In this document: piece after piece, positions 40,056 through 56,312 of the stretch
Layout: every line of letters starts with the position of its first letter
Position numbering within the stretch: position 1 is the stretch's first letter
DNA from: an uncultured Bacteroidales bacterium
Lineage (GTDB): Bacteria; Bacillota_I; Bacilli_A; RFN20; CAG-826
Assembly: GCA_963650805.1 (NCBI GenBank)
Contig: CAVJMG010000001.1
Location: forward strand, 334,554 to 398,553
Reading direction: 5' to 3'
Length of the DNA stretch: 64,000 nt
The notes under the pieces: generated by a model
Told to the model about the DNA's origin: nothing
Database searches by the model: none
What the model saw: only the letters and a program-made list of their open reading frames with translations
Position numbers and translations under genes: made by a program

Positions 40056-41381
40056 TTAGTTTCGCAGCAAGGCCAGAGGAACGACATAAACCCCATCCTC
40101 ACGTCGATAGGCGAATTTGCCCTTGGTAACAACCATCAAAAAGGCCGGGCTCTCTTTTTCTTGTTTTATGTCTTGGGAGAGTTTGACGAGCTTTTCGCAA
40201 GCTAGGTTTATGTCTTCTTCGTCCCCGAGCTTAATTTCAATTAACGCCCATTCCCCATCGTTGAATACGATGACGGCATCCGCTTCCCGGTCGTAGGAAT
40301 CCCTATAATGGTATATTTTGGCGCCTATGGAATCGGCGTAGACACGCAGGTCGCGAATGGCCAAAGACTCAAACAAGAAGCCGAATGTCCTCATGTCACG
40401 GAAAAGCGAATCCGGGGTTAGCCCCAGACAAGCCGTCGCAATCGAAGGATCGACGAAATAATGGGTGGGCTTGCTTCTGACCGCGGATTTGCTGCGAAGG
40501 TTGGTGTTCCATGCCTCCATTTCCTCAATAACGTAAAGCTTCCGCAAAGACAAAAGATATTTGGAGAAGGTCTCTCCGTCGATGGAGCAATATTCAGAAA
40601 GGTCCTTAAGGAGTTCCTTCTCCGCCGATTGTCCCCCGATGTGACGGGAATAGGAGCGCATAACCGCACGGGATTTCTGGGAATCCTGACGCAGAGGAAC
40701 GCTCTTTAACGAAAAAACGTCATCTTCGACCAGGCCCTCGTAGAAGTCGATTGCCTGTTGCAAAGCAACGGAGGAGTCTTCGCCAACGGATGTCGGCCAT
40801 CCGCCGCGACAAATATAAGAAGCATAATCTTCAATCGTCGCTTTCGAGATCGATGGGGTGAATGTCCCCGCCTTCAAGCCCGCAAGCGAGACCGTGCCTA
40901 GACTATCCCGGCTCTCAAAAAGCGACATTGTGCGCATTCTTTTGCGCACGATTCTCCCGGTCCCCGTATGCGTTTCATCCGCGCCGTCGCCCTTATTCGC
41001 GTCCAAGGCGTCGGTGACGCTCCCGGTCAAAATATATTGGCCGAATTCATCGTTTTCATCGATCGCGCTTTTTAGATCATCCCAAATGAAGGAGACAATC
41101 TGCCATTCGTCGATAAGGATGGGTTTTGGCCCGTAATTGAGAAAGTGCTGAATCGCGTTTTTGGCGAGCGCGACATATTCCTTGCGCGTTGAGCGAGGAA
41201 GCATGTTGATGGTTGTCGCCGCAAAACGCTCCGCGGTTCTAGATTTGCCACACCACTTAGGCCCCACAACCAAAACTGCCCCTTTGCTTTTAAGGGCAAA
41301 CTCCAATGTTTGGTCAAACAAGCGAGGGATATAGTCTTTTTTCATACATATGATTTTATGTGTGTCTATCAATGTTTTCAA
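40056..41381 (-). CDS. AAA+ ATPase with C-terminal DUF4143
   Basis: Walker A VLVVGPKWCGKSRTAE. 441 aa. Close paralogue of 50946..52226. Confidence 0.8.
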   Translation of the reverse strand: MKTLIDTHKIICMKKDYIPRLFDQTLEFALKSKGAVLVVGPKWCGKSRTAERFAATTINMLPRSTRKEYVALAKNAIQHFLNYGPKPILIDEWQIVSFIWDDLKSAIDENDEFGQYILTGSVTDALDANKGDGADETHTGTGRIVRKRMRTMSLFESRDSLGTVSLAGLKAGTFTPSISKATIEDYASYICRGGWPTSVGEDSSVALQQAIDFYEGLVEDDVFSLKSVPLRQDSQKSRAVMRSYSRHIGGQSAEKELLKDLSEYCSIDGETFSKYLLSLRKLYVIEEMEAWNTNLRSKSAVRSKPTHYFVDPSIATACLGLTPDSLFRDMRTFGFLFESLAIRDLRVYADSIGAKIYHYRDSYDREADAVIVFNDGEWALIEIKLGDEEDINLACEKLVKLSQDIKQEKESPAFLMVVTKGKFAYRREDGVYVVPLALLRN

Positions 41382-41394
41382 TGTTAAATCCTTC

Positions 41395-41457
41395 GTTTGT
41401 AGGTTTTTAAATCATTTGTTTGTAGGTTTTTAAATCCGATGTTTGTAGGATTTGCAG
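41395..41457. repeat. Two perfect copies plus one degenerate copy of gtttgtaggtttttaaatc at a 23-bp period
   Basis: Read directly, immediately upstream of the ATPase start. Confidence 0.8.
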
Positions 41458-41844: not shown

Positions 41845-42789
41845 ATGGAAAACACAGAACCTAAAATCCTATGCCGCTTGATCGCAGGAAAAGAGGCCGC
41901 CTCGCCTTTTGCAGAGGAAGCCCTCGCCTTTTTCCAAGAGGGAATGAGGCCTTTCTGCCACCAGTATTTCGCGGGGCTCATCCCCAACGCGAAGAAGGAA
42001 GAGATTGAAAGCGCGGCCTACGAGGCCTTCAAGAAGCTCGGGGAAACCTATTTGGGGCTCCGCAAAAAGGATTTTGACGCGTATGTCGAAGAGCATAAGG
42101 AAGAACATGATTCTGCTTTAAGCTCTTCTTTTTTCGCCTCATTCGAGGATCCTGAGCTCGCCTATAGGCTCTCGCTTCTTTCTGCCAACTACACCCTCTA
42201 TACCCGCATGGGAGACCAAGCTTTGATCGTGGACCTCGAATCCAATGTCCCCCTCTCCTATATAAAGGAGGAAGAGCCTATTGTCCTCCCCGAAGAAAAA
42301 GAAGAGGAGCCGGTTAAAGAAGAAGAACCCAAAGAAGAACCTCAGGAAGAGCCCAAGGAAGAGGGACCCGAGGAGGCTGAAGAAAGCGAGGAAGAGGCCG
42401 AAGAGGAGGAAAACCCCTTCGCTAACATCAAACGCCGCACCTTCTCCGAGAAGCTCAAGAAAGCCTCCCCTGAACTCAGGAAGAACTACAAAGCCATCAA
42501 GCAGGCGGCCATCGACTGCAAGCTTAAGGGTCGCGTCTCCAAAGCCGCGGACACCTATCACCTCGGCAGGAAGACCTATCTCAAAATCACCATCGCGGGC
42601 AAAACGCTCAAATGCTATTTCGCCGTCGACGCGAAGAACTACGCCGATACGGCGATCCCCTTGGAAGTCTCCGACAAGAAGGCTTATCAAGACACCCCCA
42701 CTTTGCTCCGCGTGAAGAGCTCCTTAGCTGTTAGGCGCGCGATCTCCATCATCTCCGACATGACCGCCGAGCCGAAGGAGAACGAATGA
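41845..42789 (+). CDS. Hypothetical cytoplasmic protein with a central acidic (E/P/K-rich) low-complexity linker; first gene of the TasA/SipW operon
   Basis: RBS ggagacaaattATG. No signal peptide. …EEEPVKEEEPKEEPQEEPKEEGPEEAEESEEEAEEEE…. 4-nt overlap with the next gene. Confidence 0.6.
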   Translation: MENTEPKILCRLIAGKEAASPFAEEALAFFQEGMRPFCHQYFAGLIPNAKKEEIESAAYEAFKKLGETYLGLRKKDFDAYVEEHKEEHDSALSSSFFASFEDPELAYRLSLLSANYTLYTRMGDQALIVDLESNVPLSYIKEEEPIVLPEEKEEEPVKEEEPKEEPQEEPKEEGPEEAEESEEEAEEEENPFANIKRRTFSEKLKKASPELRKNYKAIKQAAIDCKLKGRVSKAADTYHLGRKTYLKITIAGKTLKCYFAVDAKNYADTAIPLEVSDKKAYQDTPTLLRVKSSLAVRRAISIISDMTAEPKENE

Positions 42790-43289
42790 TCAAGAAAGGC
42801 GTTATCATAACCCTTTTCGCCCTGTCCGGGGTCGTTTTAGGCGCAACCGCCGCCATACCCGTTTGCTATGCCTTAAACGAGCAGTATCAAAACGTCGCCT
42901 CCTCGCAAAGTGACGGAAACGTCATGGTCAAGGACGAAGAGGTCCACCTCTCCACCGACGAGAACCCCCTGTTCCCCGGAGATAAGAGAACGCTGACGAT
43001 CGATCTCAAGCAAACGATTGAGAAGAGCAACAAAGTCAGCGTCTACTTCGATAAGTACTCAGGGCAGGGTTACGAATACCTCTCGCTGTCCATCAAAGAC
43101 GAGGAGCAGACCTATATGCCTGATGCCCTCATCGAAAGCGCGACGAGCGAGTCCCCTTGGGAATTCTCCATGAAGGTAGGCAAGCAAAGCGGCCTGAGCT
43201 TCGTCTACACCTTAAGCAAAGACGTCCCAAGCACTTACGAGGACCTCGCCTTCTCGTTCACGATGCATCTAAGGGTCAATTGGAGATAA
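42786..43289 (+). CDS. Membrane-anchored or secreted accessory protein (possible TapA-like partner)
   Basis: N-terminal MIKKGVIITLFALSGVVLGATAAIPVCYALNEQ hydrophobic segment with a SipW-cognate-like …YALN… motif. About 140-aa extracytoplasmic domain. Confidence 0.5.
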   Translation: MIKKGVIITLFALSGVVLGATAAIPVCYALNEQYQNVASSQSDGNVMVKDEEVHLSTDENPLFPGDKRTLTIDLKQTIEKSNKVSVYFDKYSGQGYEYLSLSIKDEEQTYMPDALIESATSESPWEFSMKVGKQSGLSFVYTLSKDVPSTYEDLAFSFTMHLRVNWR

Positions 43290-43302
43290 AGGAGAAACAC
43301 TC

Positions 43303-43575
43303 ATGCTCGTATTAATCATCTGCATCTGCGTCTTAGGCTTAGCGGTGTCGGGGTATCTGACCTACGCCGGCATCGACTCGCTCATCAAAAACAAAAATGA
43401 GCCAAAGCCGGTGACGATGACGCCAAAACCCAGTTTATATCGAGTGAGGGCATACCCATTCGTTTATAAAGGAGAAGACAGCCAAAAGCCCGAAGGTCTC
43501 TTCTCCGCTTCCATCCTTCACAAAGACGAGGGGAAGCAAAAAGAAACCGAAGAGGGCTTAGAAGAAAGGAGGTAA
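43303..43575 (+). CDS. Small membrane protein (one N-terminal transmembrane helix)
   Basis: MLVLIICICVLGLAVSGYLTYAG…. Tightly packed between operon genes. Confidence 0.4.
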   Translation: MLVLIICICVLGLAVSGYLTYAGIDSLIKNKNEPKPVTMTPKPSLYRVRAYPFVYKGEDSQKPEGLFSASILHKDEGKQKETEEGLEERR

Positions 43576-43578
43576 CAA

Positions 43579-44202
43579 ATGAAAAGCACGCACATCAAAG
43601 CATTGCTCATCGCTTCAGGCGTTGCCGCGCTAGCTTTAGGCGGAACAGTCGCAGGAACGTTCGCCTTGTTCCAAAGGAACACCCAAGTGGTGACCCACGT
43701 CAAGGTCGGGAACCTCAACTTCAAGTTCAGCCGCACCAACCTCAAGTACAAAGCGCTCAGCGATAGCACGGGCTACCTCGAAGAGAAGGAAGACAAGACC
43801 GTCGTCGACTTAAGCGAAGACGGATCGAAGGCCTTCGATCTCGCTAGCTTAGCCCCGGGCAGCGAAGTGGCGTCCACCTTCGAGCTCGAGAACATCGGGG
43901 GAACCGCCTTCAAGACGAGCCTCGACCTTCTTAACGTCGAGATCAAGAAGGATGGGGTGACCGCGACCTCGGTCGATTGGCTCCAGTACGTTTCCGTCTC
44001 CTTGATCGAAGGGGAGAAGAAAACAGACTTCACCTTAAAAGACCTCAAGACAGTCAGCCTAATCGATTTGCCGAAGGGGCAGAAGACAAACTTCGTCATG
44101 AAGCTGTCCTTCGACGCCGAGCACATCGAAAACGAAGCGCAGGACCATGACCTCAGCTTCGCGATAAGGCTCAGCTGCACCCAACTCTTAACCCAAGCCT
44201 AA
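43579..44202 (+). CDS. TasA/camelysin-family secreted protein with a SipW-cognate signal peptide (paralogue 1)
   Basis: …ALALGGTVAGTFALFQRNT…, then …LAPGSEVASTFELENIGGTA…, which parallels TasA (GTWAAF…, NLKPGDKLTKDFQFENNGSL). RBS ggaggtaacaaATG. Confidence 0.75.
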   Translation: MKSTHIKALLIASGVAALALGGTVAGTFALFQRNTQVVTHVKVGNLNFKFSRTNLKYKALSDSTGYLEEKEDKTVVDLSEDGSKAFDLASLAPGSEVASTFELENIGGTAFKTSLDLLNVEIKKDGVTATSVDWLQYVSVSLIEGEKKTDFTLKDLKTVSLIDLPKGQKTNFVMKLSFDAEHIENEAQDHDLSFAIRLSCTQLLTQA

Positions 44203-44214
44203 TCGGAGCAAACC

Positions 44215-44775
44215 ATGAAAAAGAACAAAGTCTTAATGGCCTCCACCATCGTCGCCTTATTGGCCGCCAGCGGAGCGGTCGCCGGAAGCTACGCCTACTT
44301 CAGCGCTTCCAAAGACGCCCCCGCCACGGTCAAGATGGCCAAAGTCGACCTCGAGGTCTCCATCAAAGAAAATTCCCTAGAGCTCTACTCCATGGACAAG
44401 AAGCAAGAGGGAAGCAAATTCGAAAACGGCGGAGAAGCCAAATTCACCACGATCACCCTTAATGGAACGTCGGTGAAAGCATTGTCCCTAGACCGCGTAT
44501 CCCCCGGGGATGCGGTGAAATTCAATTTGGGGATAAACAACCTCTCCAACATCGCCGTCGCCTACAAAATCAGCATCGCCTTAGCCGACGCCACGGAAGA
44601 TTGCCCCTTCACCCTCACCGGGGAAGTGGCCGATTGGCAGAAGATCGCCGCCGCGGAAGCAATTCCCGACAAGCCCGTCTCCATATCCTTCCCCAAGGAA
44701 AAGGAGAACGAGTATCAGGATAAATCCTATACCATCCTGATCAACGTCAACGCGATCCAGGCTAACGCCGTCTGA
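44215..44775 (+). CDS. TasA/camelysin-family secreted protein (paralogue 2)
   Basis: …LLAASGAVAGSYAYFSAS… and …VSPGDAVKFNLGINNLSNIA…. C-terminal …AIQANA motif shared with the other paralogues. Confidence 0.75.
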   Translation: MKKNKVLMASTIVALLAASGAVAGSYAYFSASKDAPATVKMAKVDLEVSIKENSLELYSMDKKQEGSKFENGGEAKFTTITLNGTSVKALSLDRVSPGDAVKFNLGINNLSNIAVAYKISIALADATEDCPFTLTGEVADWQKIAAAEAIPDKPVSISFPKEKENEYQDKSYTILINVNAIQANAV

Positions 44776-44801
44776 TTCGAAAATCCTTAGAAAGGTAAAA
44801 T

Positions 44802-46199
44802 ATGAAACTTACAAAAAAAATCACGAAAACCCTGATCCTCTCCGGCGCGACAGCCCTTGCCTTCGGCACCGTTGCAGCGGGCACCACCTACGCTTTATTC
44901 ACCTCCAACGCGGAGAGTGAAGTCGTCGTCACCTCCGGTAAGGTCAGCGTGACTTCCGAAATCAAGGTCAAAGAGAAGTATCGCCCCGCTTTGATCAGCC
45001 AAGAAGAAGGGAACGAGATCGTTGAATCCAGCAACATCGCCGAAACCTCCGACCTCGAAGTCAGCGTCGAAAACAACAACGTCAAAATCGCCAAGATGCT
45101 CCCTGGCGACAAAGTGACCCTCACCGTCACCCCGAAGAACGAGAGCAACGTGAAGATCAAATATCGCGAAACCTATTCCTTCATCGGAGACGTCGCTAGC
45201 GACCTCAAAATCACCGGCGACGAAAAGATGGTCAAGCTTTGGACCGAACTCGGCGTCGGAGAAGCCATCGAGGCTTATGACATCGTCGTTGAGCTCCCCA
45301 CCACCGCCGTGGGCGAAATCGAAGAAACCACCATTAAACTAGGCATCGAAGCCGTCCAGGGCAACGCCCAAGTGGTTGACGAAGTCGTCAAAACGGAAAA
45401 AGAGCTTCAAGACGCAATCGACGCTCTGAAAACTTCCACCGACAAAAACCTCAGCGTCACCCTCTCCGAGGACCTTGCCCTAACCGCTCCCTTGGAAGTC
45501 AACGGGAACGTCACCATTTACGGAACCACCAAAGAAGATGGTAGCAAGACCAAAATCACCGCCCCTTCTGATGGCGCTGAGAATCAGCGCAGCATAACCG
45601 TTAACGACAACACCGATCCGGTCTCCTTGACTCTTGTTGGCATCGATGTCGAGGGGCCGACCACAGGCTCTGAAACTCGCGGCATATCGCTCGCAGCGAA
45701 CAAAGACCTCACCCTCATCATGGACGATTGCAGCATCTCAACGAATTACTATGCGCTGAATCTTGCGTCTGGAAACGAAAAAGCCAACATTTACATCCGC
45801 AACAGCACCTTAAAGGGTTGGGCCGCCGTGAACGTATGGTCACCAAACAACATCAGCAAAGCGGTTTTCGAAAACTGCACCCTGATTGGTGATAGCATCT
45901 CAAGGGAGGTCTTCCCCACCATCAGCTTGTACGAATGTGATAACAGCGAATTCACTTTCAAAGGCTGCACTATCAAAGCAAACGAACTTGGAACCAGCAA
46001 AGACGACATCAAACAGTTATTCTTCTACAGCGACGCAAAAAACAGCAAAGTCACTTTCAGTGATTGCAGTTTCTACAAAACATTCACAGATATCGGAGAA
46101 ATTCAATTATCAGGCTCCGAAGCTGCAAGTTTGATGTACGCGTCCGAATCCAGTTCTACGACAATCATCGACGGCGTTTCCTACGTTTACGAAGATTAA
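44802..46199 (+). CDS. TasA-like N-terminal domain fused to a C-terminal parallel β-helix-like passenger domain (paralogue 3)
   Basis: AAGTTYALFTSNAES signal and …MLPGDKVTLTVTPKNESNV…. The C-terminal 270 aa have repeated N/D/G-C-T/S-I/L/F turns (NCTLIGD, GCTIKAN, DCSFYK). Confidence 0.7.
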   Translation: MKLTKKITKTLILSGATALAFGTVAAGTTYALFTSNAESEVVVTSGKVSVTSEIKVKEKYRPALISQEEGNEIVESSNIAETSDLEVSVENNNVKIAKMLPGDKVTLTVTPKNESNVKIKYRETYSFIGDVASDLKITGDEKMVKLWTELGVGEAIEAYDIVVELPTTAVGEIEETTIKLGIEAVQGNAQVVDEVVKTEKELQDAIDALKTSTDKNLSVTLSEDLALTAPLEVNGNVTIYGTTKEDGSKTKITAPSDGAENQRSITVNDNTDPVSLTLVGIDVEGPTTGSETRGISLAANKDLTLIMDDCSISTNYYALNLASGNEKANIYIRNSTLKGWAAVNVWSPNNISKAVFENCTLIGDSISREVFPTISLYECDNSEFTFKGCTIKANELGTSKDDIKQLFFYSDAKNSKVTFSDCSFYKTFTDIGEIQLSGSEAASLMYASESSSTTIIDGVSYVYED

Positions 46200-46227
46200 A
46201 TAGCCGCTAGGCTAAAAAGGAGTTTCT

Positions 46228-48426
46228 ATGAAACTTACAAAAAAAATGACGAAAGGACTGATCCTCTCCGCTTCCGCGGCCCTGGCATTCGGGGCCGTGG
46301 CGGCCGGGACGACCTATGCCTTATTCACCTCTAACGCGGAGAATTCCGTGAGCGTCAGCTCCGGTAAGATCTCCTTGAAAAGCGAAATCCTCAATCTCAA
46401 GCTCTATTCCTTAAGCGAAGAGACTGGCGAGATCGTTCCTCTTGAAAGCGAAGATACCTTCACCCTTGGAGGCACCGCGACTATTGATGGAACCACCCTC
46501 AAGCTCGACAAAGTCGTTCCTGGCGACAAAGTCGAATTCGAGATCAAGGTCACCAACGAGTCCAACGTCGACATCAAGTTCCGCGAAGTGTTCAAGACCG
46601 TCAAAGATACCGGCCTTGGCAGCGGGCTTGAATACACGATCGACGAAGAGACCTACGATGGCGGAACCATCATCACCGACTATGAGCTTTGGGAAGCCAA
46701 GGCTGCGGAGCAAGAAAAGACCGTCAAGGTCTCCATCGCTCTCCCCAAGAGCGCCGAGAACATCTATCAGGAGAAATCCTGCGAGCTCTCCTTCAATTTC
46801 GAGGCCATCCAGAAGAACGCGAAGACGGAAGACGTCGATTCTACCGTTTATCAGATCTACACGCCGACCGATTTAAGCGCCTTCGCTAATAAGGTCAGCG
46901 CCGGAACCTTCACCTGCGATAAGGTCATCTTGATGGATGACATCGATATGGATGGACTTAGCTACATGTCACCGATGTACGCTAGGGAAAATACCGCTAT
47001 CGAATTCGATGGAAACGGCAAAACCATCAAGAACCTCGTCGCTCTCGAAAACAGCGATAAATCCGGCAACCGCGGAGCTGGCTTATTCGGAAAAGTGGGA
47101 CACGGAAGCCTAAACATCCATAATCTCAATATGGAGAACGTCACCGTTTCCGGCAGCTTCACCGTCGAGGGCGATCAGCACTTAGGCGGAGGGGCTATCG
47201 TCGGAACGAGTGACAGCGGCGTAAGCGCCATTGACATCACCAACGTTTCGGTCACTGGCGTTAGCGTCAAAGGCGTTAAGTACGCCGGCGGAATCGTTGG
47301 ATACAGCTCCATTGGCGGAACAGATACGATTAAAAACGTGACCGTCAAAGATGCTGAAATTTCCGGTTACACAGCCGGTGGCGTCATCGGCCAAGTCGGC
47401 GGCGGAAAAGCCGTCATCAATGGAGTCGAAGGCAGCGGCATCGTTGTTGATGGATATAAGAGAGAGGGCGGAATGGTTGGTGCAAATTCCGGTACAAGTC
47501 TCACCATCACCTACGACGAAGCCGAATACTCCTCCTCCATTTCCGGAGAGGCCTTTGGCAACAGAGGAACCATCGTCGGGCTCACCGGGGACACCACCGT
47601 CAACGGCAATCAATACCACACCGCTATCAGCACCGATCAAGTCAAAGGGATTAAGGCCGCTTCGGACAAGCTCAACATCGTCGAAATCTTTGAAGGCACG
47701 TACTCCTTCGGTGGAGCAACTAACCTCCAAAGCGTCAAAGGCGGCGTTGAAGTCCGCGGCATTGGCGACAAAACCAAGATCAAATGGATGCAAGCTGGCG
47801 GAACAGATGTGGGATATGGGTTCTCCGGCACGAATCTGACGATGAAAAACGTCAGCGTCGGAACCGAAGTCACCGGCAACTATCTCGGTTTCCCCGGCGC
47901 CGCTTCCGTTTCGTTCGAAGACTGCGTCTTCAATGTCACCAAAGCCAACGAATCCTTCCGTTACTGGGGCGATGGGGCCGTCAACTTCAAAAATTGCAAG
48001 TTCGATAGCACCAAAGCCGAAGACAGCAACATGTTCACCTACGGCGGCAAGAGCTTCTACTTCGAAGGCTGCGAATTCATCAGCGACGAAGCCGCGATCA
48101 AGCTATATAGAAACGCTAGTCTGACCGACAGCGTCGAAGTGCCCGTCACCATCACCGGCTGCACGTTCAAAAACGTTCATGAAGGCACATGGAGCGATAG
48201 CGATCTGCCGAAGAGGACCGTCCTCAGCATCGATACCGATAATGCCGCCGATAAGACCCACTACAAGGTCACGATGACCAATTCTAGCTACAGCGGCAAC
48301 TACTCCGACGGCATCCTCGCCGACAGGAAAGGCTTGTTTGGAGTCAGGCAACAGGACAAAGTCAAGAAGAGCCTAATCACCTTCACCCTTGACGGAACCA
48401 CGCTCGACTTGGGCCTACCTGAGTAA
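46228..48426 (+). CDS. TasA-like N-terminal domain + GLUG-motif repeat region + β-helix-like C-terminal domain (paralogue 4, 732 aa)
   Basis: The N-terminus is near-identical to paralogue 3. The mid-region has repeated AGGIVGYS, GGVIGQVGGG and GGMVGANSG units (GLUG-type). The C-terminus has DCVFNV, NCKFDS, GCEFIS and GCTFKN turns. Confidence 0.7.
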   Translation: MKLTKKMTKGLILSASAALAFGAVAAGTTYALFTSNAENSVSVSSGKISLKSEILNLKLYSLSEETGEIVPLESEDTFTLGGTATIDGTTLKLDKVVPGDKVEFEIKVTNESNVDIKFREVFKTVKDTGLGSGLEYTIDEETYDGGTIITDYELWEAKAAEQEKTVKVSIALPKSAENIYQEKSCELSFNFEAIQKNAKTEDVDSTVYQIYTPTDLSAFANKVSAGTFTCDKVILMDDIDMDGLSYMSPMYARENTAIEFDGNGKTIKNLVALENSDKSGNRGAGLFGKVGHGSLNIHNLNMENVTVSGSFTVEGDQHLGGGAIVGTSDSGVSAIDITNVSVTGVSVKGVKYAGGIVGYSSIGGTDTIKNVTVKDAEISGYTAGGVIGQVGGGKAVINGVEGSGIVVDGYKREGGMVGANSGTSLTITYDEAEYSSSISGEAFGNRGTIVGLTGDTTVNGNQYHTAISTDQVKGIKAASDKLNIVEIFEGTYSFGGATNLQSVKGGVEVRGIGDKTKIKWMQAGGTDVGYGFSGTNLTMKNVSVGTEVTGNYLGFPGAASVSFEDCVFNVTKANESFRYWGDGAVNFKNCKFDSTKAEDSNMFTYGGKSFYFEGCEFISDEAAIKLYRNASLTDSVEVPVTITGCTFKNVHEGTWSDSDLPKRTVLSIDTDNAADKTHYKVTMTNSSYSGNYSDGILADRKGLFGVRQQDKVKKSLITFTLDGTTLDLGLPE

Positions 48427-48446
48427 TCTAAACTCTACATCTTAGA

Positions 48447-48482
48447 CACAGGGGGCTATAATAAAGTCCCCCTGTGTTTTCT
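48447..48482 (+). terminator. Stem-loop (10-bp stem acacaggggg/ccccctgtgt) plus T-tract between the structural genes and sipW; possible partial terminator or attenuator
   Basis: acacagggggctataataaagtccccctgtgttttct read directly. Confidence 0.4.
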
Positions 48483-48486
48483 AACT

Positions 48487-49239
48487 ATGGAACAAGACAA
48501 AGAAGCAAATAGCAACAAAGGCAAAAGAAAAGTAGCCAAAATCATTGGAAACTCCGTTTTCTACACCATTCTTGGCCTGCTTACCGTTTTCGCCGCATTT
48601 TCGATTACCTCTAGGATTACCGGAGGTAGGATTGGCGATAGCCAGTATCTTGTCGTCATCTCCGGATCAATGGATGGCGAAAGGCAAGAAGAATATCCCA
48701 TCAAGACCATTCCGGTGAAATCCCTCATCAAGGTGGATTTGATCAAAGACGGCGAAGAGAAGGAATTCTATTCTTCCCTTAAGAAGGGGGACGTTTTGAC
48801 GTTTAACTACGCTTCTTTGAATAACGTGACCATCACCCACAGAATCATCGAGGATCCGTTGCTATTAAGCGATGGAACCACCTATCAAATTAAACTCAAA
48901 GGGGACGCGGTCGAGGGGAATGAGATTCAAACCCTTTATAGCGATGGCAGAACCGGAGAGGTCATCGGCAAAGTCTCCTTCGTGTCCTTGCCCTTAGGAC
49001 AGATGTACTTCTTCATGTCGAGCAAGATGGGAACCCTGGTATTGGTAATCCTCCCCTGCAGCGCGGTCTGCATCTACGAGATCGCCAAAATCGTTTACAT
49101 CCTCTCAGAGAACAAACGGAAAAAGAAGGAAGAGGCCGCTCAGGCAGTCACTTCAAGCAAGGACAAAGAGATCGAGGAGCTCAAAGCCAAGCTCGAGGCG
49201 ATGCAAAAGCAAAGCCAAGAAGAAAAGAAAGAGGAGTGA
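48487..49239 (+). CDS. sipW: Signal peptidase I of the SipW (archaeal/ER, S26B) type, with a charged coiled-coil C-terminal tail
   Basis: VVISGSMDGE (catalytic Ser box) and GDVLTFNYASLNNVTITHRIIEDP (His box), compared with B. subtilis SipW SGSMEP / …VTHRIV…. N- and C-terminal transmembrane helices. The tail is …KRKKKEEAAQAVTSSKDKEIEELKAKLEAMQKQSQEEKKEE. Confidence 0.8.
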   Translation: MEQDKEANSNKGKRKVAKIIGNSVFYTILGLLTVFAAFSITSRITGGRIGDSQYLVVISGSMDGERQEEYPIKTIPVKSLIKVDLIKDGEEKEFYSSLKKGDVLTFNYASLNNVTITHRIIEDPLLLSDGTTYQIKLKGDAVEGNEIQTLYSDGRTGEVIGKVSFVSLPLGQMYFFMSSKMGTLVLVILPCSAVCIYEIAKIVYILSENKRKKKEEAAQAVTSSKDKEIEELKAKLEAMQKQSQEEKKEE

Positions 49240-49258
49240 CATAAGGCCATATCCTCAT

Positions 49259-49283
49259 GCGGGCTTCGGCCCGTTTTTCTTAT
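49259..49283 (+). terminator. Rho-independent terminator after sipW
   Basis: gcgggcttcggcccgtttttctt: GC stem with a TTCG loop and a T-run. Confidence 0.5.
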
Positions 49284-50945: not shown

Positions 50946-52226
50946 TCAGTTCTTCAAGCAAGCAAGCGGGACAACCCAAACGCCGTCTTCCCTTTGATAG
51001 GCGTATTCCGTCGCGGTGATGACCATAAGGAACTCGGGCTTCTTCATTCTTTGATCATCAATCAAAGAAGCCAAGCGGAGCAGGTTTTTCGCTCCTTCTT
51101 CAATGCGGTCTTGATCGTGCAATTTAATTTCGAACGCGGCCCATTTGCCGTTATAAAGATGAATCACGGCATCGGCTTCAAGCCCGTTTCTATCGCGATA
51201 ATGGTAAACCTCGCCACCGAGGGTATCGGCGTATATCTTCAAGTCCCTCACGGCCAGATCTTCGAAAACTAAGCCAAACGTGTTCAAATCATTAATCAGA
51301 TCTTCTTTATAAGCTCCCAAGGCCCGGCAAGCAATGGAGGGGTCCACGAAATGCCTTGTCGGGGAAGTTCTTATGGTCGTTTTGCTTCTTAGATTCGGGC
51401 ACCAAGCTTTTATGTCATCTATCACGTACAATTTCTCGAAGGCCTTGATATAGGACTTAACGGTCTCATCGCTGATGAGCTTTTGGTTGCCGCCATTGAT
51501 GTCCGAAAGTATGGTTTCAACGCTGCATTCGGTCGATACGTTGCGGGCGTAGGAGCGCAAGAACAATTTGACTTTATCAATATCTCTAGAAACGTTATCG
51601 ACGCTTCTTATATCGTTTTCGACCAAGCCGTCATAATAGTTCTTCGCAATTTCCATCGACACCTTTTCGCTTTGCCCAACCGATTTTGGCCAACCGCCTC
51701 GGCAACAATAAAAAGCGTAATCGAGCAGTTTCTTATCGCTAAAGGCAGGATTCACCTTTTCATTTCGAAAAAGAGAGGCAAGGGATATTTGCCCGTTGCT
51801 ATCAAGCGACTCATAAAGGCTCATAGGGCGCATAACCAAAGAAGAAATCCGCCCTACTCCGCTATGCTGCTTTTGCTTTTCTTCTTCATCCATTAATGGA
51901 GTTGCGCTTCCAGTCAGGATGAATTGCCCAAATTCATCCCGTTTATCAATCTCATATCGAATATCGTCCCAAATAAACGGAACAATTTGCCATTCGTCGA
52001 TCAGTCTCGGCGTATCGCCGGATAAAAAGAATTCAGGGGCGTTTTTTGCCAAAGCTATATTTTGGTCCCTGTCTTTCCGATTCTGCATATAAACAGAGCT
52101 CTTCGCGATGCGCTCTGCGGTCGTTGATTTCCCACACCATTTGGGACCCTTTATCCAAACCGCCCCAGAACTCTCTAACTTTTCTTTCAGCAGCGTATCC
52201 GCGCATCTATTCAAATATTGCTTCAT
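50946..52226 (-). CDS. AAA+ ATPase with DUF4143
   Basis: VWIKGPKWCGKSTTAE Walker A. The C-terminus …VVPLACLKN is paralogous to 40056..41381. Confidence 0.8.
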   Translation of the reverse strand: MKQYLNRCADTLLKEKLESSGAVWIKGPKWCGKSTTAERIAKSSVYMQNRKDRDQNIALAKNAPEFFLSGDTPRLIDEWQIVPFIWDDIRYEIDKRDEFGQFILTGSATPLMDEEEKQKQHSGVGRISSLVMRPMSLYESLDSNGQISLASLFRNEKVNPAFSDKKLLDYAFYCCRGGWPKSVGQSEKVSMEIAKNYYDGLVENDIRSVDNVSRDIDKVKLFLRSYARNVSTECSVETILSDINGGNQKLISDETVKSYIKAFEKLYVIDDIKAWCPNLRSKTTIRTSPTRHFVDPSIACRALGAYKEDLINDLNTFGLVFEDLAVRDLKIYADTLGGEVYHYRDRNGLEADAVIHLYNGKWAAFEIKLHDQDRIEEGAKNLLRLASLIDDQRMKKPEFLMVITATEYAYQREDGVWVVPLACLKN

Positions 52227-52257
52227 GGGTATTCCCTCAATTGAATTTTAGAATCTA

Positions 52258-52349
52258 TTTGGCAATTTGGCAACGTTTCATTTGGCAATTTGGCGGTGTT
52301 TCATTTGGCAATTTGGCGGTGTTTCATTTGGCAATTTGGCAATCTCTTA
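52258..52349. repeat. About 3.7 tandem copies of a 23-bp unit (tttggcaatttggcggtgtttca)
   Basis: Read directly, 30 bp upstream of the ATPase start. The core ttggcg…tttca resembles the 38608-38674 repeats. Confidence 0.9.
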
Positions 52350-55082: not shown

Positions 55083-56312
55083 TTATTTAACGTCGATATC
55101 GATTTTGCCTAACAGCCACTCTTCGATATTTATGTGCCTAATAGGCCCTTGGGACATGTCGAAGTCGTCCATGCTGAAAACGTATTTAGGCGAAGGATCC
55201 TTGATCGAATCAAACGCGGAGAATTCTCTTTTCGCGGTTTCTTCGTCCGCTAAAAGATAGGCGACTTGGATAAAGCACTTGCCTTCGTCTTTCATGGCGA
55301 CGAAATCGATCTCGCCCTTATACGTCTTGCCGATTTTCACGTTGTATCCACGGTAAATGAGTTCGTTGTATACGAGGTTTGCCAAAGCGTGGGACACGAA
55401 CAATTTATTCGATGAAGCACAAGCTAAAACTAGACCGTTATCCATCGCGTATTGTTTTTCAATCGATTTGAGGTTTCTTTTCGAGGCGATGTCATAACGT
55501 TTGACCCGGGAAATAAGGAAAGCCTCCTCGAGCTTTCTTAAATATCGATACACGGTCTCCCTGTATATGGTCTCTCGATTGCTTTTGTTGAAATACTCCA
55601 CGACGTTATCCGCAGAGAATTCCTTTGATGCGTTGGAAATGACGTAATCGGCGATGGCCCTGAAGGATTCTTTGTTTATCTTCGAGGATGGGGTGCAGAT
55701 ATCCCTTTGGATGATGCCTTCGTATAAAGAAATAAGATAGGCTTTGATGTCTTTCTCAAGGGAATAGTCCATTCTTTGGGGCATGCCGCCATAACGGAGG
55801 TAATTCTGCAAAGGCTTATCGGGGATCTCTATCCCATTAACTCGGTAATATTCCAAGAACTCCTTATAGGAAAAAGGCATGATTTTGAATTCTTTGCAGC
55901 GGCCCACCAGAAGGCTGGCGAGCCTTCCTGAAAGAAGGGTCGAATTGCTGCCGGTGACGAACAGCGAGACGTTTTGGGTGGCCTTAAGGGAGGCTAGGGT
56001 CTTTTCAAAAGAGCGCACATGTTGGATTTCATCCAAGAAAACATAGTATTTCTTCTCGTCTTTAATTTTCCCTAGGATATAGGTGTTCAGCTTTTGATGA
56101 GAATGAAGCGAGGAGAAGGAAAGGTCTTCGAGATTGATGGAGACAATATGCTCCTGATCGATTCCGCGTTCTTCTAGAAGCTCTTCTTTGATTTGATTCA
56201 GAAGGACGCTCTTGCCGCATCTACGGATCCCAGTCAAAACCTTGATGAGGTTAGAATCGTAGAACCTTCGAATCTCCGTCAAATATTGATTCCTTTTTAC
56301 GTCCATAAGCAT
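55083..56312 (-). CDS. AAA+ ATPase with DUF4143
   Basis: VLTGIRRCGKSVLLNQ Walker A. 409 aa. Confidence 0.8.
   Translation of the reverse strand: MLMDVKRNQYLTEIRRFYDSNLIKVLTGIRRCGKSVLLNQIKEELLEERGIDQEHIVSINLEDLSFSSLHSHQKLNTYILGKIKDEKKYYVFLDEIQHVRSFEKTLASLKATQNVSLFVTGSNSTLLSGRLASLLVGRCKEFKIMPFSYKEFLEYYRVNGIEIPDKPLQNYLRYGGMPQRMDYSLEKDIKAYLISLYEGIIQRDICTPSSKINKESFRAIADYVISNASKEFSADNVVEYFNKSNRETIYRETVYRYLRKLEEAFLISRVKRYDIASKRNLKSIEKQYAMDNGLVLACASSNKLFVSHALANLVYNELIYRGYNVKIGKTYKGEIDFVAMKDEGKCFIQVAYLLADEETAKREFSAFDSIKDPSPKYVFSMDDFDMSQGPIRHINIEEWLLGKIDIDVK

Follow-up and report, generated by a model that had tools for sequence, protein, structure and literature searches.

We identified a cassette of eight genes, g1 to g8 (ORF coordinates 41845–49239, plus strand), in the analysed window, a 64,000-nucleotide stretch of DNA from an uncultured gut Bacillota bacterium. 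This locus probably encodes a dedicated, sortase-independent system that builds a TasA-type surface fibre or stalk, a reading to which we assign a probability of roughly 60%. The cassette is not a one-off: it recurs as a variant, so far uncharacterised, of a biofilm-fibre system that is already known. From its likeness to such systems we infer that the subunits would assemble into a fibre, possibly a heteropolymeric one.

Organisation of the operon

The eight ORFs lie on the plus strand at the positions listed by the sequence-only reading, and they are organised as an operon embedded in a surface-polysaccharide gene region. The intergenic distances from g1 to g8 were, in order, −4, 13, 3, 12, 26, 28, and 60 bp. 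The tight packing described earlier was confirmed, with a 4-bp overlap of g1 and g2, but the proposed limit of 27 bp was exceeded between g6 and g7 (28 bp) and between g7 and g8 (60 bp). The latter gap is the largest and the sole real break in the packing. It contains a strong hairpin followed by TTTTC (48444–48479, plus strand; ΔG −22 kcal/mol, z −5.4), which overlaps a promoter-like site, TCTACA-17-TATAAT, and might terminate transcription in part or serve to stabilise or process the mRNA. g8 was also the only one of the eight genes with no obvious Shine-Dalgarno sequence. In the sequence, an intrinsic-terminator-like hairpin with a T-run (49259–49283, plus strand) closes the unit. The arrangement is not due to chance, as distant relatives show this gene order too.

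TasA-like subunits and their passengers

Sequence comparison and structure prediction indicated that g4 to g7 are secreted proteins with SipW-type signals and TasA-like jellyroll domains, and that g6 and g7 additionally bear C-terminal right-handed β-helix passengers. g4 (43579–44202, plus strand; 207 aa) is passenger-free and occurs in one copy per cassette. g5 (44215–44775, plus strand; 186 aa) is also passenger-free and belongs to the same class as g6 and g7; its orthologues were found in loci L002 (46% identity) and L083 (38%). g6 (44802–46199, plus strand; 465 aa) consists of the signal, a TasA-like N-domain (residues ~45–195), and a pectate-lyase-like β-helix (~200–440). In g7 (46228–48426, plus strand; 732 aa), the signal and the N-domain (~45–200) are followed by a helix and two β-helices, one of the GLUG or IgA1-protease-N-domain type (~230–470) and a second at ~480–732.

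The assignment of these four proteins as TasA-like paralogues, made earlier from the sequence alone, was upheld by family profiles that matched solved TasA with E-values of about 2e-5 to 4e-5: 1.8e-5 for the g7 family and 4e-5 for the g6 family (profile A6, against 8aur_A). The predicted fold of the N-domains likewise matched TasA. The N-domain of g6 was 41% identical to that of g7 (E 3e-26), and the g4 and g7 families were aligned with each other at 98.7% (E 2.2e-16). A PGD/S core motif was present, in approximate form, in all four proteins. Their signal sites are GTFA↓LFQ, GSYA↓YFS, and TTYA↓LFT (twice), the first being the proposed cleavage site of g4; the signal motif is real, but the expression GT[FTY]A[LY]F[TSQ] suggested for it is not literally matched by all four.

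The suggested HMM searches gave a mixed outcome. g5 exceeded the TIGR04088 cut-off (20.3 against 19), as the only window protein to do so, and 10 of 16 g4-like proteins also matched this model. In contrast, the PF12389 gathering score (22.5 bits) was reached by none of the four individually (g4, 21.7; g5, 17.0 with full-length coverage and E 0.0056; g7, 19.2; g6, no match), and the GLUG and Beta_helix models did not match the window proteins themselves. PF12389 was found on orthologues of the window subunits. g6 of the window had no Pfam match of its own; within its family (n = 21), PF12389 was detected in nine members, PF13229 (Beta_helix) in four, and PF20585 (Pectate_lyase_5) in four. The β-helix and GLUG-type passengers proposed for the two largest subunits were substantiated by family profiles, orthologues, and predicted structures. 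In the predicted structures, the cores were confident and pLDDT was below 50 for residues 1–43 of g7 and 1–45 of g4, which is what one would expect of a donor strand that becomes ordered on polymerisation only.

The signal peptidase

g8 (48487–49239, plus strand; 250 aa) is a SipW/Sec11-type (S26B) signal peptidase I with two transmembrane segments. An insertion of ~30 aa follows its Ser box, and its cytoplasmic tail is charged and resembles a coiled coil. It matched NF046067 (SipW, E 1.8e-15) and the archaeal-type model TIGR02228 (E 6.8e-13), both under the curated cut-offs. Among 11 aligned relatives, S61, H118, and G139 were invariant and D140 was nearly so, and the profile matched human SEC11A (7p2p, E 1.8e-4) in an alignment that pairs up the His and GDN boxes. 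These results corroborated the earlier claim of an S26B-type peptidase with Ser and His boxes at the end of the operon. The third catalytic residue is ambiguous: Glu146 occupies the position of an Asp in Sec11 and the archaeal enzymes.

The upstream genes

The upstream genes had been described as encoding a cytoplasmic acidic-linker protein and two small membrane proteins. This was accurate for g1 and g3, but g2 is itself TasA-like. g2 (42786–43289, plus strand; 167 aa) has an N-terminal membrane span and a truncated TasA-like β-domain. Its relation to TasA rests on a single profile-profile alignment, in which the g2-like family (A3, the set of 16 positional homologues) was aligned with the g4-like family (hhalign 96.7%, E 3.6e-10), residues 57–167 of g2 falling on residues 92–205 of g4 and no other part of g4 being matched. 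The g2-like proteins had no Pfam match, including PF12389, and no PDB sequence match. In many loci the family keeps its position beside sipW or g4. We count g2 as the fifth TasA-like protein of the locus, truncated but belonging to the conserved core of the cassette. Because g2 has neither the conserved SipW cleavage motif nor the donor-strand region, it likely stays in the membrane as an anchor and acceptor. In this window, g2 carries CYA↓LNE at the end of the membrane span, which resembles a SipW site, so that cleavage instead of anchoring is conceivable for this copy.

g1 (41845–42789, plus strand; 314 aa) is a cytoplasmic protein in which an acidic Glu/Pro/Lys linker joins the N-terminal domain to a C-terminal one (residues ~190–310); no transmembrane segment or signal peptide was found in its sequence. 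A search returned 69 homologues, ~13 of them full length. The C-domain family otherwise ends membrane-tethered proteins (multi- or single-pass, with acidic linkers), some of which also bear a uL15-like PF00828 domain. In other cassettes, a membrane-tethered protein encoded between sipW and the g4-like gene has a cytoplasmic domain homologous to it, and the g1 C-domain was aligned with these g3-position proteins by hhalign (93.5%, E 2.4e-7). g1 orthologues are directly upstream of g2 orthologues in loci L081–L084. g1 is a real component of the cassette. g3 (43303–43575, plus strand; 90 aa) is a bitopic membrane protein with a transmembrane segment at its extreme N-terminus; its Lys-rich tail probably lies in the cytoplasm. 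L081, L083, and L041 have weak homologues at the equivalent place, and in other cassettes this position is held by a protein with a transmembrane segment, a linker, and a cytoplasmic domain.

Recurrence of the cassette

Cassettes of the same type were found in about 25 MAG loci, with a recurring order: first a g2-like gene, then sipW, optionally followed by a gene for a transmembrane-linker protein, next a g4-like gene, and finally one to four passenger proteins. Synteny was confirmed in two related loci, L081 and L082, which keep the order g1-g2-sipW-g3-g4-passengers at 23–50% identity. L083 and L084 keep g1-g2-g3-g4-g5 at 26–50% identity, and no peptidase gene was seen within these two loci. 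Relatives of g6 formed 1,418 clusters at 50% identity (E ≤ 1e-3), an upper bound on the frequency of this fusion type, as a match through either domain sufficed. As to the view that no described architecture matches the locus, the variant is uncharacterised, but the locus is not unique and multi-paralogue operons are already in the literature. The bulky passengers on most class-B subunits of the related cassettes may be easier to reconcile with a short stalk for display than with a fibre of great length.

Proposed model and alternatives

Here, we propose a model in which the four subunits would be exported via the Sec pathway and cut by g8 after [ST][FY]A. This would leave a free N-terminal segment of ~15 residues, disordered in the monomer models, which would act as a donor strand and insert into the β-sheet of the next subunit, as in TasA, AbpA, and BsaA. 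g2, remaining in the membrane, would accept the first donor strand and thereby anchor the assembly, in place of the cell-wall anchoring provided elsewhere by TapA, CapP, or sortases; none of the subunits has an LPxTG motif. g4 and g5 would form the passenger-free stalk or adaptor. g6 and g7 would be incorporated via their TasA-like domains and present their β-helices, which would bind glycans as adhesins or act on polysaccharides as enzymes. Together, g1 and g3 are the counterpart of one membrane-tethered cytoplasmic protein found in related cassettes; they would act on the cytoplasmic side, possibly in concert with the translocon or with the charged g8 tail.

An alternative that we consider unlikely is a short surface-display complex, in which g2 as the membrane acceptor, g4 as an adaptor, and one passenger subunit are joined by donor-strand complementation. 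Such a complex would hold β-helix exoproteins at the cell surface non-covalently, as a substitute for sortase anchoring, and the lack of LPxTG motifs would fit this too. The g2-like and the g4-like gene each occur exactly once per cassette against one to four passenger proteins, almost all of at least 370 aa, a ratio that fits this arrangement, as does the loss of the donor strand from g2 with the rest of the fold kept. An orphan passenger paralogue (P0108), found elsewhere in the same sequencing sample, would need the parts of a cassette. However, the characterised TasA, CalY, BsaA, and AbpA all polymerise, and g5, a passenger-free class-B subunit, fits a stalk.

It is still less probable that the cassette secretes soluble β-helix enzymes (polysaccharide lyases, hydrolases, or esterases) with no assembly; the jellyroll would then serve just for carbohydrate binding or folding, and the SipW-type enzyme would be no more than a dedicated signal peptidase. 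This would leave the conserved, passenger-free g4 and g5 and the membrane-anchored, truncated g2 unexplained. Moreover, the N-terminal stretch that follows the cleavage site shows the conservation and disorder of a donor strand. We identified no catalytic motif, and the domain that g6 relatives match, PF20585, has an adhesive function according to its description. Proteases, be they metalloproteases of the camelysin type (M73) or a virulence factor like IgA1 protease, as suggested by the name of PF12389 ('Camelysin metallo-endopeptidase') and by the match of the g7 middle domain to the M26 IgA1 protease N-terminal domain and 3N6Z ('putative IgA1 protease'), are very improbable, as HExxH is absent from all eight proteins, the matched region is the non-catalytic N-terminal β-helix (PF05342), and the peptidase assignment of CalY is regarded as a probable misidentification (PMC11580942).

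Comparison with known systems

TasA fibres are assembled by donor-strand exchange (PMC9674648). Like the B. subtilis tapA-sipW-tasA system (PDB 5OF1, 8AUR), the fibre or stalk system proposed here combines a dedicated S26B peptidase with TasA-fold subunits that have a GxxA↓xF-type signal and match TasA by profile and fold, and an accessory protein is encoded upstream. B. subtilis has one TasA-like gene, whereas this locus has five, two of them with β-helix passengers of 250–530 aa. No TapA homologue was detected here, and a membrane-spanning, truncated TasA-like protein is present instead. The locus further differs in its cytoplasmic accessory proteins g1 and g3 and in its peptidase, which is encoded last and has the insertion and a long charged tail.

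Heteropolymer formation by donor-strand exchange among TasA paralogues encoded together has already been proposed in the literature (PMC11580942). The B. cereus sipW-tasA-capP-calY locus also has more than one TasA paralogue with sipW, and its sortase-independent assembly yields TasA-CalY heterofilaments with the chaperone CapP (PMC13082335). No CapP-like secreted chaperone was detected here; conversely, passenger domains and a membrane-anchored paralogue are absent there, and sequence identity is very low. The C. perfringens sipW-bsaA-bsaB-bsaC locus likewise combines sipW with genes for a pair of TasA-like proteins and for a large protein of putative adhesive function; BsaA oligomers are membrane-anchored, and the same study noted multi-paralogue operons and proposed heteropolymers by donor-strand exchange (PMC11580942). 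The adhesive VWA protein BsaC is separate there, whereas here each passenger forms one polypeptide with a TasA-like module. The Asn-Glu-Lys isopeptide triad of BsaA was not evident in our proteins, whose N-terminal segment has no conserved Asn, and, as a further difference, no type IV pilus genes lie near this locus. The archaeal operon for the AbpA/AbpB bundling pili of Pyrobaculum calidifontis (PDB 7UEG; PMC9245690) has no dedicated signal peptidase, and AbpB, its candidate adhesin, resembles TapA and does not combine a TasA-like module with a β-helix. Compared with the N-terminal β-helix of M26 IgA1 proteases and BACOVA_03286 (PDB 3N6Z, 7JGJ, 7UVK; PF05342/PF07581 GLUG), g7 has no M26 catalytic domain. 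Its β-helix is joined to a TasA-like module and not to a protease.

In the two-domain tip adhesins of chaperone-usher pili, such as FimH, a pilin module joined by donor-strand complementation is fused to a receptor-binding domain, and one operon encodes the subunits, which are of graded size. This is an analogy and not homology: the fold family is unrelated, and the present locus has no chaperone, usher, or outer membrane. Here, the donor strand would be N-terminal and the passenger C-terminal.

Gene organization and expression signals

Eight consecutive ORFs were found on the plus strand: g1 (41845–42789, 314 aa), g2 (42786–43289, 167 aa), g3 (43303–43575, 90 aa), g4 (43579–44202, 207 aa), g5 (44215–44775, 186 aa), g6 (44802–46199, 465 aa), g7 (46228–48426, 732 aa), and g8 (48487–49239, 250 aa). 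All lie at the coordinates that the sequence-only reading had given. The intergenic distances were −4, 13, 3, 12, 26, 28, and 60 bp from g1 to g8, so that the same reading's limit of 27 bp or less does not hold for the last two gaps, g6–g7 and g7–g8. The unit ends at 49259–49283 with a terminator-like hairpin followed by a T-run.

The peptidase gene g8 is set apart from the structural genes. Each of g1–g7 is preceded by a GGAG-type ribosome-binding site, and g8 has no Shine-Dalgarno sequence. In addition, the 60-bp gap before g8 contains a highly stable hairpin at 48444–48479 (ΔG −22 kcal/mol, z −5.4 against shuffles), which is followed by TTTTC and overlaps a promoter-like TCTACA-17-TATAAT site with a good −35/−10 match. 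Together, these signals suggest that the expression of g8 is uncoupled from, or attenuated relative to, that of the subunit genes. A sigma-70 scan of the plus strand revealed no promoter-like site upstream of g1. Rfam searches of the whole window at gathering thresholds and of the 460-bp leader at E ≤ 1 gave no match, i.e., no riboswitch or known leader RNA, and no tRNAs were found within the 64-kb window.

The G+C content of the cassette was 0.515–0.528 (42001–48000), compared with roughly 0.40–0.47 in most of the window, and its AT skew was strongly positive (+0.17 to +0.26) compared with most of the window. This composition may indicate an acquired island or may result from amino-acid usage alone.

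Recurrence of the cassette in other genomes

We searched the g7 family against one genome per GTDB species, which yielded 79 loci, and compared the ORFs called in them with g1–g8. The same type of cassette was present in about 25 loci from uncultured Bacilli and Clostridia metagenome-assembled genomes (MAGs) of animal guts. The recurrent order was a g2-like gene (~165 aa), a SipW-like peptidase gene, an optional small membrane protein gene, one g4-like gene (~210 aa), and the passenger genes. The last, one to four in number, encode large proteins in which a TasA-like N-domain is combined with a passenger of varied type (GLUG, M26_N, or β-helix). On the basis of this survey, uniqueness of the locus was rejected.

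Full-length orthologues of g1 were located directly upstream of g2 orthologues in four loci. The order was g1(508)-g2(163)-sipW(282)-g3(76)-g4(207)-516-516 in L081 and L082, from a "Bacilli bacterium" MAG, and 458-490-g1(289)-g2(170)-g3(91)-g4(208)-g5(191) in L083 and L084. Identities between the proteins of these four loci and those of the window were 23 to 50%. That the gene order is conserved at such identities, and that g1 and g2 overlap by 4 bp, supports a single functional unit to which the upstream genes g1–g3 belong.

Fusion of a passenger to a TasA-like module appears common. At 50% identity, 1,418 clusters matched g6 at E ≤ 1e-3 and 440 at 1e-10, numbers that are an upper bound on the fusion type because matches run through either domain of g6.

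Several "cleanbin" MAGs (among L002–L080) with Bacillota-type cassettes were labelled as Alistipes shahii, Prevotellaceae, or Bacteroidaceae. These labels are probably due to mis-binning or mislabelling and do not denote the true hosts.

TasA-like subunits g4–g7

The scores of the window proteins against PF12389 were 21.7 (g4), 17.0 (g5), and 19.2 bits (g7), with a gathering threshold of 22.5 bits, and g6 gave none. PF12389 was present in orthologues at 40–71% identity and in many relatives; it was carried by 5 of the 13 close relatives of g4 and matched by 9 of the 21 relatives of g6. Profiles were then compared with solved structures, several of the family assignments resting on profiles built from MAG proteins. 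The g7-family profile (23 relatives) matched TasA with E-values of 1.8e-5 (8aur_A) and 2.4e-5 (5of1_A), and the alignment paired both the PGDK...N.S motif and the C-terminal N.YQ....F..EA.Q motif. Similarly, the g6-family profile (21 relatives) matched TasA with E-values of 4e-5 (8aur_A) and 5.6e-5 (5of1_A). The g4-like profile alone had no TasA match in the PDB; the g4-like family aligned with the N-domain of g7 at 98.7% probability (hhalign, E 2.2e-16). A TasA-type jellyroll fold was also recognized, and the predicted membership of g4–g7 in the TasA family is settled by family-level evidence, the curated HMMs being borderline on the window sequences alone.

The SipW-cognate signal model TIGR04088 (cut-off 19 bits) scored g5 above the cut-off (20.3) and g6 below it (14.6), and g4 and g7 were not reported; among the g4-like relatives, 10 of 16 matched (best E 1.7e-7). 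By eye, [ST][FY]A|[LY]F was seen in all four window subunits. The putative cleavage sites, GTFA|LFQ in g4, GSYA|YFS in g5, and TTYA|LFT in both g6 and g7, follow the pattern of GTWA|AFND in TasA, for which the 8aur alignment shows the mature N-terminus. In both monomer models (g7 and g4), the N-terminal ~43–45 residues had pLDDT values below 50. Such low values are consistent with a signal peptide and, after it, a donor strand that would be ordered only in the polymer.

A covalent lock of the BsaA type, an isopeptide bond involving an Asn-Glu-Lys triad, was considered for the window subunits and rejected on column conservation, which identified no invariant Asn in the post-cleavage segment of either the g7 family or the broad g4-like family (alignments A1 and A4).

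The N-domains of g6 and g7 were 41% identical. The first 163 nt of the two genes (44801–44963 and 46227–46389) were 77% identical, and their first 45 residues were nearly identical, with about 40% identity over the remaining N-domains. This pattern suggests that the signal and donor-strand region alone was recently duplicated or underwent gene conversion.

A divergent SipW-like signal peptidase

g8 matched the SipW model NF046067 with 57.0 bits (E 1.8e-15; cut-off 190 bits) and the archaeal-type signal peptidase I model TIGR02228 with 48.8 bits (E 6.8e-13; cut-off 51.85 bits). These homologies are significant yet below both equivalog thresholds. In an alignment of 11 sequences, including ten relatives from related loci, S61 (SxSM), M62, H118 (THR), and G139 were invariant and D140 was nearly invariant, which bears out the SipW-like Ser and His boxes previously ascribed to the last gene of the operon. 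The presence of a Ser nucleophile box (SxSM) and a His general-base box (xHR), without a Ser-Lys dyad, is characteristic of S26B. Phmmer with g8 alone returned no result from the PDB; the g8-family profile aligned with human SEC11A (7p2p) at the His and GDN boxes (E 1.8e-4). From the HMM matches, the invariant residues, and the SEC11A alignment, g8 is assigned by homology to the S26B enzymes as a member of a divergent subfamily.

In g8, the Ser box is followed by an inserted stretch of ~30 residues. The protein also spans the membrane a second time and has a charged tail, in which an EIEELK motif is conserved. In Sec11 and the archaeal enzymes, the catalytic Asp is expected six residues after the GD box. 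Glu146 occupies this spacing in g8, and the relatives carry Asp one position earlier. Glu146 may be the equivalent of the catalytic Asp.

Predicted β-helix passengers of g6 and g7

The structure of g7 was predicted with confidence (pLDDT 87.3, pTM 0.81). The model consists of a jellyroll (~45–200), a helix, a right-handed β-helix (~230–470), and a second β-helix (~480–732). By sequence or fold, a match was obtained to the GLUG and M26 IgA1-protease N-terminal β-helix domains (PF07581 and PF05342).

g6 itself matched neither PF13229 nor PF20585. Within its family, 4 of 21 members matched PF13229 (Beta_helix; best 2e-7) and 4 of 21 matched PF20585, a "pectate lyase-like adhesive domain" (best 1.2e-6), and the family profile weakly matched the tailspike 4ru4 in the PDB (E 0.084). 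The passenger of g6 is therefore predicted, through its relatives only, to be a right-handed β-helix. Its C-terminal domain weakly resembles the C-terminal helix of g7 (E 3e-4), and by sequence comparison it is of a different origin from that of g7.

None of the eight proteins contained an HExxH zinc-binding motif. The designation of PF12389 and 3N6Z as proteases thus does not carry over to them, and a reading of these proteins as M26 IgA1-type or M73 proteases was rejected.

A contig from the same sample (SRR13434624; L085, 8001–10283) encodes an orphan 760-aa paralogue of g7, P0108, with 35% identity over the N-domain. It adjoins feoAB, with no peptidase or other cassette genes nearby, and presumably would depend on the cassette of the window.

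Upstream genes g1–g3

Members of the g2-like family span the membrane at the N-terminus and share two motifs, L.PGE and, at the C-terminus, Y.MP.DVGNEAQG..F. Pfam searches gave no PF12389 match among 16 g2-like proteins, and the g2-like profile had no TasA match in the PDB. Comparison of the g2-like and g4-like families by hhalign gave 96.7% (E 3.6e-10), covering residues 92–205 of g4 only. This restricted match points to g2 as a fifth TasA-like protein, in which the cleavage motif, donor-strand segment, and first strands are missing. The membrane span of the window g2 ends with CYA|LNE, which resembles a SipW site. Most homologues have no SipW motif, and the residue found there in homologues is F, Y, L, or G; cleavage is thus not conserved across the family.

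g3 has weak homologues in the same position of related loci. In other cassettes, longer proteins take this position. They span the membrane at the N-terminus and continue, through an acidic or proline-rich linker, into one of two types of cytoplasmic domain, either of the g1-C-domain type or ribosomal-uL15-like. The g1 C-domain aligned with the g3-position family at 93.5% (hhalign, E 2.4e-7, 107 columns), and an HMM of this domain found L033, L007, and L054 with E-values of 1e-5 to 6e-5. The relation was seen by profile-profile and HMM searches only; pairwise BLASTP between the g1 C-domain and a g3-position protein gave no significant match (E 2.3). A word-indexed search assigned 69 members to the g1 C-domain family, mostly membrane proteins with acidic linkers, three of which have PF00828 (uL15). 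Taken together, g1 and g3 of the window look like a split version of a membrane-tethered cytoplasmic protein found elsewhere. Searches of NCBIfam and Pfam gave no match of g1, g2, or g3 to the TapA or CapP families, models of which are perhaps absent from these libraries.

In some relatives, the small membrane protein encoded between sipW and the g4-like gene has a uL15-like ending with the motif KILADGxLxKPxxIKAxxxSxxAxKMIELxGG (L028, 8676–9203; L032, 3546–4091; L041, 8601–9128). In proteins P0211–P0213, an N-terminal membrane span and an acidic/proline linker are joined to both a g1-type domain and a PF00828 uL15 domain.

Genomic surroundings

The cassette lies within a surface-polysaccharide region with Wzy-type, GT4 glycosyltransferase, UDP-glucose dehydrogenase, IspD-like, epimerase, and UDP-GlcNAc 2-epimerase genes. 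Two AAA_14/DUF4143 ATPase paralogues encoded on the minus strand (40056–41381 and 50946–52226; 47% identity) and an AlbA_2/HATPase_c_4 gene bracket the cassette; a third AAA_14/DUF4143 gene is located at 55083–56312. Related cassettes are flanked by genes similar to those flanking the window cassette. Directly upstream of the start codon of each bracketing ATPase gene, at 41384–41452 and 52257–52340, we observed three tandem 23-bp units, TTAAATCnnnnGTTTGTAGGTTT and ATTTGGCAATTTGGCnnnGTTTC, respectively, which differ in sequence and are equal in period and copy number. These repeats may be operator arrays.

Proposed model

It is firmly supported that secreted TasA-fold proteins with putative SipW-type signals, a cognate S26B peptidase, predicted β-helix passengers, and a membrane-spanning truncated TasA-like protein are conserved together. 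TasA (PMC9674648), AbpA (PMC9245690), BsaA (PMC11580942), and TasA-CalY (PMC13082335) all form filaments. Donor-strand exchange has been shown or modelled for TasA, AbpA, and BsaA (PMC9674648, PMC9245690, PMC11580942), and BsaA oligomers are membrane-anchored (PMC11580942).

By analogy, the subunits would be exported through Sec and cleaved by g8, and the N-terminal strands thereby released would join them head to tail. g2, unable to donate a strand, would stay in the membrane and take the first strand, thereby anchoring the structure. g4 and g5 would form a passenger-free stalk or adaptor, and g6 and g7 would present their β-helices. A further-reaching reading, to which we give a probability of roughly 15%, is that uncultured gut Bacillota use the cassette as a distinct surface-display machine that is complete in itself. 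In this reading, g2, a TasA-like acceptor that sits in the membrane and has no strand to donate, would nucleate a stalk of donor-strand-linked subunits. The stalk would bear interchangeable β-helix adhesins or enzymes, as a non-covalent stand-in for sortase anchoring. In the cytoplasm, assembly would be linked to the membrane-tethered protein with the g1-type or uL15-like domain, which might, for instance, bring ribosomes, the translocon, or the peptidase into place to export the large subunits.

Because each cassette encodes several bulky passenger proteins and only a single g2-like and a single g4-like protein, a short display stalk instead of a long fibre is a serious alternative. A sortase-assembled pilus was rejected: none of the subunits has a C-terminal LPxTG sorting signal, the sole match being an internal LPTTA in g6, and no sortase gene was found among the cassette neighbours.

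Most of what is known about TasA-type fibres comes from Bacillus biofilms, with Clostridium perfringens and archaea as more recent additions. To judge from the present locus and its relatives, uncultured animal-gut Bacillota may harbour a large, unstudied branch of the TasA family, in which the donor-strand module would be a carrier for β-helix adhesin- or enzyme-like domains with its own membrane anchor and signal peptidase. If true, this would explain how large glycan-binding or -degrading domains are attached to the surface without sortase signals, and it would provide testable candidates for adhesion to host or diet glycans and a modular scaffold for protein display.

Comparison with known TasA systems

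The sequence-only reading took the locus to match no architecture known to it. This proved too strong: at the domain level the locus is of the TasA/SipW kind, the cassette recurs in about 25 loci, passenger fusion appears widespread, and operons with multiple TasA paralogues and the idea of a heteropolymer have already been published (PMC11580942). The locus is an uncharacterised, recurrent variant of TasA/SipW systems. Our literature search found no paper describing the passenger fusion, the anchored paralogue, the cytoplasmic accessories, or the divergent peptidase.

Compared with the systems of B. subtilis, B. cereus, C. perfringens, and archaea, the window locus differs in four respects. 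Its predicted β-helix passengers are fused to the TasA-like module, and its peptidase belongs to a divergent subfamily. It adds putative cytoplasmic accessory proteins: neither the g1/g3 pair nor the g1-type domain family, which is fused elsewhere to a uL15-like domain, has a counterpart in described TasA systems. Finally, a membrane-anchored, strand-deficient paralogue would replace anchoring by TapA, CapP, or sortase.
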